DNA of 64,000 bases from Terriglobia bacterium. GTDB lineage: Bacteria; Acidobacteriota; Terriglobia; Acidiferrales; UBA7541. Made by a program: the position numbers. The first letter of the stretch is position 1; each line of letters begins with the position of its first letter. The DNA lies in NCBI GenBank assembly GCA_963695545.1, contig OY968796.1:1664001-1728000 (forward strand). Direction: 5' to 3'. Shown here one piece after another: positions 27,001 to 36,000 of this stretch.

Positions 27001-30000
27001 CACGTATATACGTTTTCGGCCAGCCGGGAGGTCAGAACGGAAATTCCGAATCAGCAGGTGGTGAGAATGCCTCGAGAGAGTGTGCCTCGAAGTGGCCGAA
27101 TTCCGAAAGAGGTCGGCGTTCTGCTGACGGGAAGCGACGCGGATGGCAAGGTTTTCGCTGAGGAGACCAGGACCGTCATGCTCAGTCGATACGGGGCGGA
27201 AGTTGTTTCGCGACATACGCTATACCCAGAGCAGGAGATGATTCTTTGTCGGCTGGACATGCATAAAGAGGCAGAGGTCCGTATCGTTGGGAAGATCGGA
27301 TTTCAATCCCGCAGCTACACCTATGGTGTAGCGTTTCTAGACCCAAACATCATCTTCTGGGACGTCGAGTTCCCGCCTTTGACTGAATTGGAGAAGGCGG
27401 CGCGCCGCTGCTTGCTTGAGTGCAGCAGATGTAAAAACCGCGAGATCGTCGAACACGGGGACATCGAACGGCAGGTCTTCGCAATCAACGATGGTATCGT
27501 GCGGCACTGCGAACGCTGCGGATGCTCAACCGCTTGGATTCGTGCTGCTGACGACGCCGATGACAAATGGGTTTCGCCCGAATCCGAGCATGAGCCAGAG
27601 CAGGCCGCGTTTCAGGCTCCACCGGCGGAATCCGAGATCCCGATGCCGGCAGTACAGCCAAGAAACAAACGGAAGCACGTTCGCGCGAATGTAAATTTCA
27701 CCGCGTGCATCCGTCGTCCTGGTTTTGATGACGACGTCGTCATCTGTGAAGACATGTCGCGAGGTGGTTTCTGCTTTAGGAGCAGCAAGCGATACCACGT
27801 CAATTCATTTATTGAAGTAGCTGTACCATACTCGGCAGGTGCCCCAAGCATTTTTGTCCCGGCAGAGATCGTGTACGTACTCGATCTGCCAGAGAAAGGA
27901 CTTTTCAGGTGTGGCGCGGCTTACAACAGAACGCCTTGGGGGGCCTTCGCTGTAGAGCGGGATGTGTGATTCACTCTGTCACTGGGCGCAGCGGCAGAGC
28001 GACCTCAATATCTGTTACACAAAGAATCCCGCGGGGCTCGAGATCCCAGGCGGTGGCGTGGGTTACAAATTGGATCCGAGCATCGGCGTTCGCGTGATTC
28101 AGGCGCAATACCTTTATCGCAGTTCTTGAACGCCGTCGGCGCCGCGACCGCAACCGCCATAACCATATCAGGCTCAGCGCTGGAATCACATTTGGCCTCG
28201 GTAGACGCTGACAGCCTTCGTGTACGGGTTCGTTGAAATCGTACGAGAACACTGCCACCCGTTTGGGCTGCTGACAGATTGAACATCGGGGACCCGCTCG
28301 TTGCTCTTCCGCGCCTCCCGTCGTGCAATTATTGAGTCCGTGATACAACCGAAGCGCGCCTCGCTGCGCTCTATTGCGTAGCCCAACTCGGTCGCCACGC
28401 AATTGAAACGGAGTTCGAAGGCTAGCGGCTCGCGGACGCGTTCCTATAAGCGACTCCATCATTCAGGACGAATCAGAATATGCTGCCTAAACCAACTCCG
28501 AATGCGACGCGCTTGCGATCAGGAGCGGCCTTGCATGACGAGCGGCGCCGATTCGCGCGGTATGCCATCTCGGCGGTCGCGCAAATCGCAGATCCGCGTT
28601 CGGGTGCCCGGTTGACTGCGCGGGTATCCGATCTCGGATGGGGCGGCTGCTACGTTGACACGCTCGCACCGTTACCCGTGGGAACCCAGGTCCACGTCAG
28701 CTTGCGCAAAGAGAAGTCGGCGATCGAATTAACCGGGAAGATCGTCTATGCGAATCCCGGCCTTGGAATGGGAATCGCGTTCGTTGGCGCGGCGGCCGAA
28801 CACAAGGAGGCGCTAAAGAAGTGGTTGAACAGCCTTTCCCAAGGTCAGCCATCCGGCGATTCGATTCGAACGCCCGTCCCAGCCGCGCGACGAACCCCCA
28901 CCGCTACCGCTGGCCCGGACGACGCGCGTTCCTGCGTCGCAAGGCTCGTGCATTTGCTCGTCGCAAAAGGCCTACTGACCGAAGACGATGCCGAGATGAT
29001 TCTTAACAAGCGACCGTCCGTTCTCTAGTCCGCACTCGCCATCGCGAGGGTTCGGGAGCGTTCCCTATCCATTCGCAGCCTTCGTTGATGCTGCCGCTCG
29101 GCGGGACGCTGCGCTTCTTGTTGCGACTTCTCACATCTTGGCTTGACGGGAAGATGGCTCGATCGAGCGGGCAGCGGACCCAGCTCTTAGTTGAGGCCGC
29201 CTGCTGATAGGATGTAGTTTCGGCGTTCAAGTATCCCGGCGGGAAAGTCGTCGTCGCGGGGCAACCGGAGCTTTGAGAAGTTGCTGGCTATCTCGTGCGC
29301 CATCCATATAGTCGGGCCAGCCGCAGCGGGCGCAGAACTGCGTAGAGACTCCCAAAATGCTTCCCTACGGGGTTCTCTTTGCGGTCCGACTCGGTCGAAA
29401 CAGTGGCGAGGCGAATTGCGTAGCGCAGACCGTCGCCAGTCCGTCCGCGCACGCGAACGCGAAAACTGAAACGCTTCAAAACTCCGAGTTCCGGTCGTCG
29501 TAGTGCAAAGAGTCGGCGACAGACTTGTCCACTGAGCTGTCGCACCACCGGGTCGCGATCGAGATGGGATAAGACTGTCTCCGGTAGAGGCGCGCCGAGC
29601 ACTACCCGGCTAAGGTCGGCGGCAAGAAATACCATCCGCTCGACGCCAAGGCTTCGAGCGCGTCTGATCACCGATTCCCAGTCAAATCCTCCAGGAGTTT
29701 CTACTAGTGCGGCAATGTCCGCAATCCAACCAAGCCGATTCCAGAAGTGTTTGGAGCCGTGCACGGAGAGAAGAATAATCAAATCTTCGGCGCAAAATGT
29801 CTGCGCTTTGCCACCTGCCAACAGAATCGTTTGTCTGCGTCCGAGAAAAGCCTCCACATCCAGCCTTCGTGGGAAGTATCGCAGCGTCGCTTCGCTATGG
29901 ATTTCGACGTACACACTGCGTGCTTCGCTGTAGTATGCGTACTGGCCGGGAACCGGCCCACCGGCGCTCACAGATCTCCGTATTTCTTTCTCATCAAGCT

Positions 30001-33000: not shown

Positions 33001-36000
33001 CAACGGAAGCGCATCGCCTCGGGTGACCAAACGCGCGATTTGATGATCATTCGTCCTAATCACCACGCGATGGGCGATGAACCTGCCATCGCGAGCGAAA
33101 AGCACGATATCGCCTGGAAGGACGTCGCCGATCTGCTGGCGACGAATCAAGAGGAGATCGCCGGGCCACACGGAAGGAAGCATGCTAAAACCCCTGACTT
33201 TCAACCGCAATCTCCCGGACGATCGCAGAACCTTTTCCGCCAGTTCGCACTTCGCGGCGTCAGCAGCTTCAAGTTTGGGGTGATTGATCGGCATCGAGCA
33301 CTTGCTCACTCTCGCGCCTTGGCGCGGTGAAGTTGAATCGCCGCCGCGCCAGCGCCGCGACGTGCCACCATCGCCAGACTTCCTTCCAAGCGTGTGCGCG
33401 ATTTCCGCCTGCCATTCGCGGCCCCCAGATGGGCCTCTTGTCTGCCTGCACAGGTAGAGTGCAAGGGAAGGGAACCGATCCGGGTCAGAGATATCGCTGT
33501 CAGCATTGGTCTGGTGACCAATCGGCATTTAATGATTAGACGCCAACGAGCATCCGTTTCCACATGCGAATGGCTGGCCGCGCATATTCCGCGCCTAAGA
33601 AAGTTTGCGATTGAAATGGCATTGTGGCTGGGTACTGCTGATCTTTCCACACGTGAGTGCTGTAGTTTCAAAGACTTCCTCAGTACGAAATTCAGGTTTG
33701 CGGTAGGGTTTCTTCCTCACGCTACGCCCAATTTCTTCGTCTCCGCGGGAATGTCCCGTCTTGTCGCTGCCCGGCTTAGGATGAGTCATATTCCTCGTTT
33801 CATGGCAAACCGGATTGTGTCGACCTTGGAGATGGTGGTTTAGAACGCTTGGTTGCACTTACTGCAATCCGTTTTGTGTCAACTTTTGAAAACATCCCCC
33901 GGAGGTTGCCGAGTTACATTGAAAGGCGGAGCCAGCCCCACCAATTAGACTGGGCCCAGCTGGAGCCAGCCACGAGAAATAAATGCTCGACGCTTGTGGA
34001 AAATTCCCAACCGTTGTCAGAGCGTTGTTGTCGATGATTATTCCGCTCGTTCCGCCCGTGCTCACGTCTGAGAAAGCTGTAATACCCGTGTCGCCATTCC
34101 CTTCTGTACCTGATGGAGGCCATGAAGTTGTGGTGAGATCAAGAGACATTACGCAACCGGTCTGACCATTGCACGGCCAGTTTAAGTTCGCGACGCTGAG
34201 AAATATCCAATCCGTGGAAGTATTTGTATTATAGAACTCGGTTACCGGAGAGCACTGAACATTAGGGGGATCCGAGATCTCGGCACTGTACACGAGAGTC
34301 CGATAGGCTGTCGGGCCTCCGTCCGCAGTTGCATTCATAACACCAGTGCTGCTGAATCCGACGCGCCAAAGAGCAGGCGCATCGGCTAGCGTTGGATCCT
34401 TGCCACAGAAATAGAGAAACCCTGAGGTGCTATTCGCTAAACTATTGTAATAGGTATTGTCAAAATCGCCGGCGAACATCGCCGATCCGGTGCTGGTCCC
34501 GCCGACTCCCGCGAGCGTCACGACGCTACCCAGTGCCGTATTCGTCTGCACCACCTCCCCGTTGTTGACAGTATCTGTCCCATCGAACCAGAAGACGCGT
34601 TCCGATGTGCTGTCAACCAAGGGCCCATCAACAATGGAGCCAGACAGCGCTATCTCTGGTGAACCCAGGCAAGGTGGGATTCCAGAAGCGCACGATCCGG
34701 ACGAACTCCCCGTTTCTCGGGCGTACGAGATCTTTCCAGCCGAATCGCCAACGAAGATATTTCCGCTGCTCCCGTCGAAAACCGGACTCGTGAGAATCGC
34801 GCCAGCGTCCACGGTGATCGGCCAACCGCCCGTAATGACCTCGCCGGGCGTCCCCTGGAATACTCCCGAGAACTTGTGGAGTACGCCGCTTTCGTCCCCA
34901 ACGTATAGCGTATCGGTCGCGTAATCGTAAAACGGAGACGAGTTCGTATCTTCATTTCCGTTGTGAAACGGAACACTAATCATGCAAGATTCACCATTTG
35001 GACAGGTGGTTGTGTTCCAGGCCGTGTTACCCAATGCGCCTGCCGCTGTGTTGACGTAGCTATTCGTGGGTGTCATCGGCGATGTGATGGTGGTGCCTTC
35101 GCCTGCCACGCCCCTCAGAATCCGGAGGACAGCACCAGTCGAGACGGAGGTTTCGACGAACGCGACTTTATCGCCGAGCGCAGATAAGACAACTGATGTT
35201 TGCGCGCTGCCGGTGCCGGTGAAATAGGACCACATCACCGACGGCCCAGCTGTCCCGCAATACCCGGCCGGACTACCGCCAGCCTGTGATGCATAGAGTT
35301 GATTAAGCGCAATAATATTGGGCGTTCCGGATCCCTCCCCGCCCGAAGCGCCCGGAAGATCGTTGTTAAAAGTAACATAGTCGTTGATGCAGTCTGGAGC
35401 GGCATCGACGTTAAATGAGAATTTTGCCGGAAACGTAGTCGCGCTTCCGGTCGTGGCGGTGCCAGCCGCGAGCGAACTCATGGAGAATGCCCAATCCCGA
35501 TGCAGTTCGTCGATTGACGAATTGTTTTTCGGCGGGGCCGAAGCCGTGCCGAGCTCTGACGTCGCCGTACCGACTCCTCCGCAACTAGAAATCATCAAAA
35601 CGAGCAAAATCGCAAGAGCCGTCATCAACGTCGGCAGCCAACGTCGTCGACTCATAAATGCAACGACAAATGACAACCCTAAAATAACTGCCGCAATCTG
35701 GAAGCCGTGAACGGGTGACGCTGGCAGCGGTAGCGTTTCGGGTTGATTCTCTTGGGCCTCCGCCGCGTGGACAGTCGTTGCGAAGCTTACGTCCAGGGCC
35801 GCCGCTAAGCGCATCAGAGCGGTATTAGTCCTTGCGGTTAACGCCGGCGATCTGACCCCGTTTGCGTTACGCGGTTCCGAGTGGGTGGAGAACGGACCAG
35901 GACCGCGAGTAGTGCTGTAGTACGGCTGTAACGAACGTACATTTCGTCTCAGCCGTTGGTGAAGCAGGCGAGGATCCTTTTGGATTTTTGCCCAGACGGC

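Follow-up and report, generated by a model that had tools for sequence, protein, structure and literature searches.

Precursor gene and downstream enzymes

The window, a 64,000-nucleotide stretch of contig OY968796.1 of an acidobacterial genome (Terriglobia, family UBA7541), carries on its minus strand a small gene that is directly followed by five same-strand genes for an S24/S26-like peptidase, an HprK/ScmC-like kinase, a PqqD protein, a radical SAM enzyme with a SPASM domain and a PF14907 nucleotidyltransferase (Table 1). This arrangement had already been described in the initial annotation and was borne out by the ORF listing and domain scans. The small gene lies in a minus-strand open frame at 33595-33858, in which the ATG at 33789 gives a 64-aa peptide, MTHPKPGSDKTGHSRGDEEIGRSVRKKPYRKPEFRTEEVFETTALTCGKISSTQPQCHFNRKLS. 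It is a genuine coding gene that was missed by the annotation of this genome, as had been suspected. Third codon positions are the most variable ones, with mean pairwise differences of 0.32, 0.29 and 0.55 at positions 1, 2 and 3 (n = 40 distinct DNAs). Furthermore, the protein-level conservation is gapless and ends exactly at the Ser-stop junction, where each of the three stop codons occurs, and called homologues number in the thousands, with thousands of relatives in metagenomes. An untranslated ORF conserved as a non-coding element, which would fit its absence from the annotation and the GAGGA placed only 2 nt from the ATG, is already contradicted by the codon-position signal, the peptides of related loci and the database homologues and is considered extremely improbable. 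The start codon had been left undecided between this ATG and an internal GTG; the ATG is supported, because an ATG occurs 16-31 codons ahead of the conserved Tyr in 39 of 60 distinct open frames (28 codons in the window) and because database homologues are mostly called as 59-62 aa.

Table 1. Features of the peptide locus (coordinates in the window)
Feature	Coordinates	Strand	Remarks
Membrane/secreted protein, 792 aa	33859..36237	-	Upstream of the peptide gene; C-terminal 550 residues form a beta-propeller; signal/TM segment
Precursor peptide gene, 64 aa	33598..33789	-	ORF, codon-position signal, conservation and start analysis; stop codon 33595-33597; GAGGA before ATG
Predicted leader, residues 1-42	33664..33789	-	Variable N-terminus, then KKPYxKPxFxxExVFET with YxxP recognition motif and FET cleavage junction; boundary by analogy
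Predicted core, 22 aa, residues 43-64	33598..33663	-	xALxCGK, second Cys ten residues on, terminal Ser
Putative leader peptidase, soluble Ser/His signal-peptidase-like (archaeal/SEC11 type)	32785..33528 (longest ORF)	-	Likely start ATG near 33294 (MPINH...)
HprK/ScmC-like P-loop kinase	31982..32935 (longest ORF)	-	Likely start near 32785
Discrete PqqD-family RiPP recognition element (RRE), probably lasso/LPP B1 type	31668..32000	-	PF05402 5e-11
Radical SAM/SPASM peptide maturase	30529..31671	-	CxxxCxxC motif, Cys-rich C-terminal domain
PF14907 nucleotidyltransferase	29288..30532	-	PF14907 9.7e-50; 4-base overlap with end of radical SAM ORF (30529-30532)

The NCBIfam matches of the kinase, the peptidase, the PqqD protein and the radical SAM enzyme are all below the curated cut-offs. 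The peptidase matched TIGR02228 (2e-11) and Peptidase_S24 (9e-7); its nearest solved structures are SEC11C/A, with the catalytic Ser and His aligned, and these residues (Ser40 and His78) are kept in 45/45 sequences. Members of the kinase family matched ScmC (18/18), HprK_rel_A (18/18) and HprK_rel_B (16/18), all under the cut-offs. The likely start of the kinase was placed downstream of that of the longest ORF, because relatives have stops within the first ~45 codons. The kinase model (pLDDT 87.6) has a PEP-carboxykinase-like fold, and all of the 50 Foldseek matches listed are PEP carboxykinases, with HprK/P absent among them. In the profile search the PqqD protein matched the lasso RREs TbiB1 (1.5e-10) and PbaB1 (9x90; 1.5e-9) better than LppB (9x8z; 2.3e-6), followed by TfuB1 (1.7e-5) and PqqD (1.8e-3). 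The radical SAM enzyme (radical SAM 7e-24, SPASM 2e-11) reaches the cut-off of no NCBIfam family, the best being AhbD with 141 bits and MftC with 138 bits, and its nearest solved structures are SkfB (1.2e-17) and then PqqE (2e-8). SkfB is a thioether-forming enzyme.

Conservation of the peptide family and its linkage to the cassette

Only seven database proteins had been known from the initial annotation, a number superseded by the profile search, which gives 6785 clusters; every one is named as hypothetical, and none has a Pfam family. Scans of Pfam and NCBIfam found no model for the precursor family in either, in agreement with the earlier statement. A six-frame match at E<=1e-3 is present in 180 of 401 genomes of the family UBA7541; the conservation reported before, with 201/301 genomes at E<=1, is confirmed. 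The earlier claim that the peptide is a hallmark of UBA7541 is not supported as worded, because full-length relatives also occur in another family of the same class (7/33 genomes) and leader-only relatives in several further acidobacterial families. In these other families the same leader, KKxYxKPxIxSEKxFExxALxC, is followed by unrelated cores of ~30-65 aa; the genes are sometimes found as three in tandem and adjoin homologues of the kinase, the PqqD protein, the radical SAM enzyme and the peptidase. A conserved leader joined to a variable core is the architecture seen across the acidobacterial relatives.

The gene linkage was analysed in 40 foreign loci of 12 kb with 43 peptide genes, 20 of the loci being chosen among the best matches on long contigs and 20 coming from multi-copy genomes. 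The peptidase gene lies within 300 nt downstream of 30/43 peptide genes, and genes for peptidase, kinase, PqqD and radical SAM enzyme are all found within 6 kb of 34/43. The earlier reading of the ORF as a ribosomal precursor that belongs to this cassette is supported. The nucleotidyltransferase gene was found within 6 kb downstream in only 6/43 cases, and the genes beyond the radical SAM gene are heterogeneous among related loci.

By analogy to the linear polyphosphorylated peptides (LPP) discussed below, the precursor is predicted to consist of a leader of 42 and a core of 22 residues. Among the best database matches, 120/120 have 22 residues after FET and 120/120 end with Ser, a residue that is also terminal in 59/59 distinct peptides from the loci and in 11/13 leader-only relatives. 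In an alignment of 58 sequences, Y, P, E, AL and CGK are invariant, as are the second C and the final S. Of the residues previously regarded as invariant or nearly so, both Cys and CGK thus stand, whereas F, N and R of FNRK and Q of TQ are kept in less than 90% of these sequences and FEV replaces FET in approximately one third of the locus peptides. One leader-only relative (L092) has a single Cys. Alignment position 33 is Thr in 90% or more of the sequences, while the 22-aa core has no conserved Ser apart from the terminal one and an invariant Leu at position 3.

Relation to known peptide systems and proposed maturation

The closest described system is LPP, encoded by lppA-K-B-S-D-N of Paenibacillus alginolyticus (Popov et al., Nat Commun 2026; PMC13381572). 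LPP is defined there by an archaeal-type signal-peptidase-like leader peptidase, a discrete RRE, a kinase of HprK-like type, a PF14907 enzyme and a YxxP...FET leader with the motif YxxPxVLxHQxIxFETxxS; the SipW-like peptidase LppS cleaves after T-1 and requires F-3/E-2/T-1, LppK phosphorylates a core Ser (Ser3), and lppN and pbaN are assigned to PF14907 in supplement file 1 (PMC13381572). The acidobacterial cassette shares with LPP a predicted Ser/His leader peptidase of the SipW/SEC11-like type (judged from the TIGR02228 and SEC11C/A matches and the conserved Ser/His pair), a discrete PqqD/RRE (closer in profile matches to lasso RREs than to LppB), the HprK-like kinase, the PF14907 enzyme (1e-49, though adjacent in few relatives) and the leader with YxxP and FET junction ahead of a variable core. 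Moreover, sugar-nucleotide genes belong to the neighbourhood in the window, and capsule loci host LPP clusters (PMC13381572). The initial annotation as an undescribed RiPP class is not supported as worded, because enzyme toolkit and leader are those of LPP from Bacillota; the system is LPP-like with an added radical SAM enzyme and not a wholly new class. New compared to LPP are the radical SAM/SPASM enzyme, the presence of Cys in the core, the C-terminal Ser that never varies and the occurrence in another phylum, Acidobacteriota. The main text of PMC13381572 contains neither the term radical SAM nor rSAM or SPASM. LPP is said there to occur in Bacillota only, although 10 peptidase homologues from Acidobacteriota, which fall into small network clusters, are listed in Supplementary Data 1 and left without discussion. 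Further differences to LPP are the Leu in place of the phosphorylated Ser at core position 3, so that the LPP motif with Ser3 is not matched, a YxxP-to-FET spacing two residues shorter than the LPP consensus, and the missing MsbA-like exporter of the LPP core cluster: the cassette encodes no exporter, and no ABC exporter lies between 16 and 47 kb of the window. Among 15 ORFs scanned 3' of the radical SAM gene in 13 related loci, only one, in L044, encodes an ABC ATPase. The radical SAM/SPASM enzyme together with the two invariant Cys would argue against a purely linear product.

Similarities exist to other systems as well. In lasso clusters the C-terminal Ser of the precursor is phosphorylated by an HprK-like kinase, and PsmN adds a hexose to this phosphate (PMC6993621, PMC8498205). 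With these phosphorylated or phosphoglycosylated lasso peptides (paeninodin with PadeK, pseudomycoidin with PsmK/PsmN) our system shares the kinase, a precursor ending in Ser, a PF14907-type enzyme that would act on the phosphate and a B1-type RRE that would read YxxP/WxxP, but the macrolactam synthetase (C) and the B2 cysteine protease are absent from the cassette, which has radical SAM and signal-peptidase-like enzymes instead. The Asn-synthase gene at 16233-18143 has full glutamine-amidotransferase domains and is 11 kb away. The combination of HprK-related protein, PqqD and radical SAM/SPASM enzyme is shared with SynChlorMet (ScmC, ScmD, ScmE, ScmF), and ScmC is the best NCBIfam match of the kinase. 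However, the scores remained far below the equivalog cut-offs of TIGR04249-04251 (ScmC 48.6 vs 125 bits, ScmE 113.9 vs 400, ScmF 57.3 vs 400), SynChlorMet has two radical SAM enzymes instead of one, and peptidase and PF14907 enzyme are additional here. A literature search found no paper with the term 'SynChlorMet'. Finally, the maturases of sactipeptides and ranthipeptides (SkfB, AlbA and relatives) likewise combine a radical SAM/SPASM enzyme and an RRE acting on a Cys-containing core, but our RRE is encoded as a protein of its own, and tailoring by kinase and nucleotidyltransferase is foreign to those classes. The homology to SkfB (1e-17) and the invariant Cys may indicate a Cys thioether in the present case.

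Taken together, we assign a probability of roughly 70% to the reading that the 64-aa ORF encodes precursor A, from which a modified peptide of ribosomal origin is matured by LPP-like machinery plus an added radical SAM/SPASM enzyme. The chemical steps, the cleavage site and the step order are inferred as follows. The PqqD-type protein would bind the YxxP motif of the leader, and the radical SAM/SPASM enzyme would then modify the core, most likely by a thioether at the first Cys (core residue 5), which is kept throughout, and perhaps also at the second. Subsequently, the HprK-like kinase may phosphorylate the invariant C-terminal Ser in the manner of the paeninodin and pseudomycoidin kinases, and the PF14907 enzyme, where present, may decorate this phosphate. 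Finally, the signal-peptidase-like enzyme, soluble and of Ser/His type, would cleave behind FET and thereby free the 22-residue core. The Cys cross-link by the radical SAM/SPASM enzyme and the phosphorylation proposed before are upheld as the likeliest modifications. The conservation of the last Ser suggests C-terminal phosphorylation as in paeninodin; because core position 3 is Leu and not the Ser3 of LPP, the kinase target is deduced solely from this invariance.

Alternatively, the kinase could target an internal core Ser or Thr, and the terminal Ser could be needed for something else, such as recognition by protease or exporter or a reaction of the radical SAM enzyme at the C-terminus. MftC, which acts on a C-terminal residue, is the second-best NCBIfam match of the radical SAM enzyme (3e-40, under cut-off), and the widely kept Thr at position 33 might offer a site. 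LppK likewise acts on an N-proximal core Ser and not on the C-terminus, but it did not accept a replacement of Ser by Thr or Tyr (PMC13381572). The lack of a conserved internal Ser in the core and the specific recognition of the C-terminal Ser by lasso-cluster kinases (PMC6993621, PMC8498205, as cited above) make an internal site unlikely.

Co-inheritance with a beta-propeller gene

The peptide gene and the beta-propeller gene upstream of it are inherited together, a feature that, like the terminal Ser, had no mention in the initial annotation. The propeller protein has no Pfam family and no PDB sequence match, and its relatives in the Atlas are only hypothetical proteins of Acidobacteriota. 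The genome contains exactly one gene of the propeller family and one peptide gene, which are adjacent, and among the related loci 32/43 peptide genes have a same-strand propeller homologue upstream at a distance below 1 kb. The pair is tandemly repeated three times in L044 and twice in L063, and pairs that lack a complete set of maturases in their vicinity occur in L033, L052, L058, L060, L062 and L070. In a comparison of genome lists by hand, in which related genomes are not independent, the peptide was present in 133/139 propeller-positive versus 47/262 propeller-negative genomes of the family.

In another reading, the cassette acts on a different protein, such as the propeller with its C-terminal tail (...GCAVKLTQ...), the small ORF being a regulator or bystander. 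The tail is conserved in the propeller family, contains Cys together with K, T and Q, and loosely resembles the CGK...TQ of the peptide. Nevertheless, the small ORF bears a YxxP...FET leader, as is typical for precursors that depend on an RRE, and accompanies the maturases even in clades without propeller, and the N-terminal signal/TM segment of the propeller fits poorly with a cytoplasmic radical SAM enzyme; we therefore regard this explanation as very unlikely.

More can be said for a functional partnership, which differs from our main reading on function only. In quinohemoprotein amine dehydrogenase, a radical-SAM-cross-linked gamma subunit sits in a beta-propeller partner. Similarly, the matured 22-mer, cross-linked, C-terminally phosphorylated and perhaps glycosylated, could serve the extracytoplasmic propeller as its specific ligand or small subunit and not be a free natural product, each duplicated propeller gene bringing its own peptide gene. 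The adjacent single genes, the upstream position at most related peptide genes, the tandem and maturase-poor pairs and the co-occurrence in family genomes all point in this direction. On the other hand, leader-only relatives of other families have maturases and no propeller (0 matches in G441), six loci combine peptide and maturases with no propeller match, a redox or catalytic motif was not identified in the propeller, and the propeller has a signal/TM segment, yet a peptide exporter is not encoded. The partnership is thus a tentative proposal, possible though not probable. If true, propeller and peptide would represent a two-part cell-surface module of soil Acidobacteriota and not a free antibiotic.

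A precursor gene and its putative maturation cassette

The small open frame directly downstream of the propeller gene is a genuine gene, and the cassette that follows it is genuine as well. Both had been proposed in the initial annotation, the former as an uncalled ORF, and the gene is borne out by six-frame conservation, a codon-position signal and the breadth of database matches. Six-frame searches (E<=1e-3) of 401 UBA7541 genomes matched the peptide in 180, and in 135 of the 287 that are of good quality, the conserved portion being the final ~42 residues. Among 40 distinct DNA versions, the mean pairwise difference at codon positions 1, 2 and 3 amounted to 0.32, 0.29 and 0.55, respectively, and the variability peak at position 3 shifted along with the frame when the compared segment was offset. 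Among sequencing runs, only four soil-metagenome DNA runs, all from one study, were listed as containing the stretch, two of which may be its source; no RNA run was among them.

Precursor gene, propeller gene and cassette genes in gene order, with window positions
Feature	Position	Strand	Basis
Propeller, 792-aa ORF (first in gene order)	36237-33859	-	ORF
Peptide gene, next after propeller ORF	33789-33598	-	ORF
S24/S26-like peptidase	33528-32785 (longest ORF)	-	family assignment
HprK/ScmC-like P-loop protein	32935-31982	-	family assignment
PqqD protein	32000-31668	-	family assignment
Radical SAM/SPASM enzyme	31671-30529	-	family assignment
PF14907 nucleotidyltransferase (last in gene order)	30532-29288	-	family assignment

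The peptide frame extends on the minus strand from 33858 down to the stop codon at 33595-33597, and its sole ATG (33789) gives a product of 64 aa. This start and this length are supported by the ATG positions in relatives and by the lengths of database proteins: an ATG is found 16-31 codons ahead of the conserved Tyr in 39 of 60 distinct open frames (28 codons in the window), and lengths among the top 120 database proteins range from 49 to 66 aa, 59 being the mode. The internal GTG of the window ORF lies just four codons ahead of this Tyr. Directly behind the propeller gene's TAA, and in frame with it, comes a GTG with which the peptide frame opens (33856-33861), probably an incidental arrangement. 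In-frame read-through from the propeller into the peptide was rejected, because the relation of the two frames varies between loci.

Gene linkage was analyzed in 40 foreign loci of 12 kb with 43 peptide genes, a non-random sample composed of 20 loci selected among the top matches located on long contigs plus 20 from multi-copy genomes. The peptidase gene was located within 300 nt downstream in 30 of the 43 cases, with its match mostly starting 6-85 nt past the peptide end, while peptidase, kinase, PqqD and radical SAM (rSAM) genes were all found within 6 kb in 34 of 43. A PF14907 gene occurred within 6 kb downstream in 6 of 43, and otherwise heterogeneous housekeeping genes lie beyond the rSAM gene, with one ABC transporter in locus L044. 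With a start at the conserved MPINH (ATG near 33294), the window peptidase would be separated from the peptide stop by about 300 nt (33295-33594); the alternative ATG at 33528 would add 78 non-conserved residues. No convincing terminator after the peptide gene was found in this spacer, and a 321-nt span of peptide-gene end and spacer folded no better than shuffled sequences (z = -1.2). One locus (L056, G183:C5:960985-973125) carries the peptide gene on the opposite strand, convergent with the propeller gene and divergent from PqqD-rSAM; neither peptidase nor kinase was detected there.

The cassette enzymes compare with known proteins as follows. In the putative peptidase, a Ser and a His align with the catalytic residues of SEC11, and both are kept in 45 of 45 sequences. 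The PqqD profile matches structures of RiPP recognition elements (RREs) from lasso peptide and linear polyphosphorylated peptide (LPP) systems, namely TbiB1 (1.5e-10), PbaB1 (1.5e-9) and LppB (2.3e-6). ScmC and HprK-related families were matched in all 18 kinase members scanned, in each case below the cut-offs. The kinase model (pLDDT 87.6) displays a PEP-carboxykinase-like P-loop fold, which is also the fold of HprK/P; HprK/P was absent among the 50 structural matches listed. The rSAM/SPASM enzyme possesses a complete CxxxCxxC motif, and among solved structures it comes closest to SkfB (1.2e-17), which forms thioethers, with PqqE second; no NCBIfam family attained its cut-off with this protein.

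Peptide anatomy and the extent of the family

An alignment of 58 peptides (A2, 44 positions) yields the consensus KKPYxKPxFRxERVFETMALxCGKxxxTQxQCxFNRKxS. In the numbering of this alignment Y9, P12, E21, A24, L25, C27, G28, K29, C37 and S44 are invariant, and at least 90% of the sequences share K6, E17, V19, F20, T33 and K42. The terminal Ser goes unmentioned in the initial annotation; it stands immediately before the stop in 59 of 59 distinct peptides from fetched loci and ends 120 of 120 top database matches. By analogy with the LPP precursors described below, we place the predicted leader/core boundary after T42, which would give a core of 22 residues, equal to the length of the segment after FET in all 120 top database relatives.

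The family is much larger than the seven database proteins first counted, since the profile from the 58 peptides, run against a public protein collection, retrieved 6785 clusters at 90% identity with members of 24-77 aa. All of them are named hypothetical, and none carries a Pfam domain. The peptide itself matched no Pfam model, even at E<=10, and no NCBIfam model, and its profile gave chance matches alone in the PDB (zinc-knuckle peptides, E about 9). Our literature search retrieved no paper on this peptide family or on a cassette of rSAM enzyme, HprK-like kinase and signal-peptidase-like protein, and none for the term 'SynChlorMet'. A very large peptide family in public metagenome data is still without a Pfam or NCBIfam model.

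Moreover, the peptide is not the hallmark of UBA7541 it was initially taken for, as shown by a profile search of 401 genomes sampled across the phylum Acidobacteriota, which found matches in 21. The relatives are full-length in a second family of the class, where 7 of 33 genomes have them, and in one further family. Elsewhere, in several families, the match is limited to profile positions ~3-30; these leader-only relatives open with KKxYxKPxIxSEKxFExxALxC, have cores that are unrelated and span about 30-65 residues, and are at times encoded by three genes in tandem. They adjoin homologues of kinase, PqqD, rSAM enzyme and peptidase in differing gene order, and 11 of 13 end in Ser, the other two appearing truncated. 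Against Pfam (E<=10) they gave nothing meaningful. Such a combination of conserved leader, variable core and common enzymes is what marks a family of RiPP precursors. One acidobacterial genus harbors 6-11 precursor copies per genome, some as tandem triplets, of 85-90 aa (loci L082, L083 = G441:C9, and L084-L086). These share the leader; their core is rich in Gly and carries the conserved motifs YDTFTGH and GPGGTS, and they have a second Cys close to the end and Ser as last residue; their genes adjoin those for peptidase, rSAM enzyme, PqqD and kinase.

Relation to phosphorylated peptides and proposed maturation

The closest described gene set is that of the LPPs in Bacillota, which includes, besides a leader peptidase of the archaeal signal-peptidase type, the discrete RRE LppB, the HprK-like kinase LppK, an MsbA-like exporter and LppN, an uncharacterised NTP transferase for which the supplement lists PF14907 (Popov et al., 2026, PMC13381572). 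As described there, LPP precursors carry the leader motif YxxPxVLxHQxIxFETxxS and are cleaved after T-1, with F-3, E-2 and T-1 required, and LppK adds several phosphates to core Ser3. The acidobacterial YxKPxF...VFET contains both elements of this motif, YxxP and FET, at a spacing two residues shorter. However, the acidobacterial cassette adds an rSAM/SPASM enzyme and encodes no exporter, and the core has two invariant Cys. The peptide is always Ser-terminated, and with Leu at core position 3 the LPP phosphosite is absent. The nearest precedent for this terminal Ser comes from the lasso-peptide kinases PadeK and PsmK, which phosphorylate the precursor's C-terminal Ser on its side chain, whereupon PsmN attaches a hexose to that phosphate (PMC6993621, PMC8498205).

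The LPP report states that these peptides are restricted to Bacillota and describes the roles of LPPs and paeninodins as still unknown; its main text is without the words radical SAM, rSAM, SPASM or Acidobacteria (PMC13381572). Its Supplementary Data 1 includes 10 peptidase homologues from Acidobacteriota, placed in small network clusters and in some cases next to an 'other' RRE; the main text discusses none of them. In one of the 10, of 3031 aa, the peptidase domain is fused to a very large protein, and two more are fusions of 482 aa.

The system is not the new RiPP class initially suggested, but the LPP/paeninodin toolkit with predicted radical-SAM chemistry, found in Acidobacteriota. We consider the following overall reading of maturation rather likely (probability roughly 0.7), each chemical detail being less certain than the whole. 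PqqD would bind the YxxP leader, the rSAM enzyme would cross-link Cys47 and possibly also Cys57, the kinase would phosphorylate Ser64, the PF14907 enzyme may decorate this phosphate, and the Ser/His peptidase would cut after FET. This gives a concrete predicted product, in which the leader is removed after T42, one or more Cys cross-links are present and Ser64 bears a phosphate. A tailoring toolkit characterised in Bacillota only would thereby be joined with radical-SAM chemistry in a phylum that is dominant in soil.

The neighbourhood of the cassette (window positions 16233-18143, 26238-29028, 39389-42073) encodes an AsnB-type asparagine synthase with glutamine-amidotransferase domain, three PilZ-domain proteins, a UDP-glucose dehydrogenase and an NAD-dependent epimerase/dehydratase, resembling a polysaccharide-related setting such as that reported for LPP clusters of Bacilli. 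A similar AsnB-type gene lies ~1 kb past the rSAM gene in locus L059.

The propeller protein

The 792-aa protein encoded upstream has hydrophobic segments at ~29-47, 176-194 and 201-219, the last ending in a lipobox-like LMISSC. Its final 550 residues gave an all-beta model (pTM 0.79, pLDDT 70) matching beta-propellers such as BamB, Photorhabdus lectins and lactonases (E 1e-7 to 1e-8, modest TM-scores). It matches no Pfam family and no PDB sequence at E<=1, and in the Atlas it is represented by Acidobacteriota 'hypothetical protein' clusters only.

A propeller homologue was found less than 1 kb upstream in 32 of the 43 peptide genes of the non-random loci. The pair is repeated in tandem in L044 and L063, and stands without the full maturase set nearby in six loci; the window genome has a single, adjacent copy of each. 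By a comparison of genome lists by hand, 133 genomes have both genes, 6 just the propeller, 47 just the peptide (for the most part weak matches) and 215 neither, counts that do not amount to a statistical test, because related genomes are not independent. The tight linkage within the clade, together with leader-only relatives in other families that are without the propeller, suggests that peptide and propeller act together in this clade. Their strict co-inheritance, the propeller being a secreted protein, offers a handle on the purpose of such peptides. When the propeller domain (alignment A1) and the conserved 44-aa peptide (A2) were modelled as a complex, two runs without controls gave ipSAE 0.02, a value that speaks neither for nor against an interaction.

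Relative to its homologues, which measure 620-680 aa, the window propeller has an insertion at residues ~120-240, which contains two additional hydrophobic segments and the lipobox-like LMISSC and weakly matches NCBIfam NF058595, 'lipo-invert C-terminal anchoring domain' (4e-7, below cut-off). The propeller family shares a conserved N-terminal DWSxRHxxFS after the signal/TM segment, and its C-terminus, ...GCAVKLTQxxLx, bears a loose resemblance to the peptide core's C-G-K...T-Q, which may be chance.
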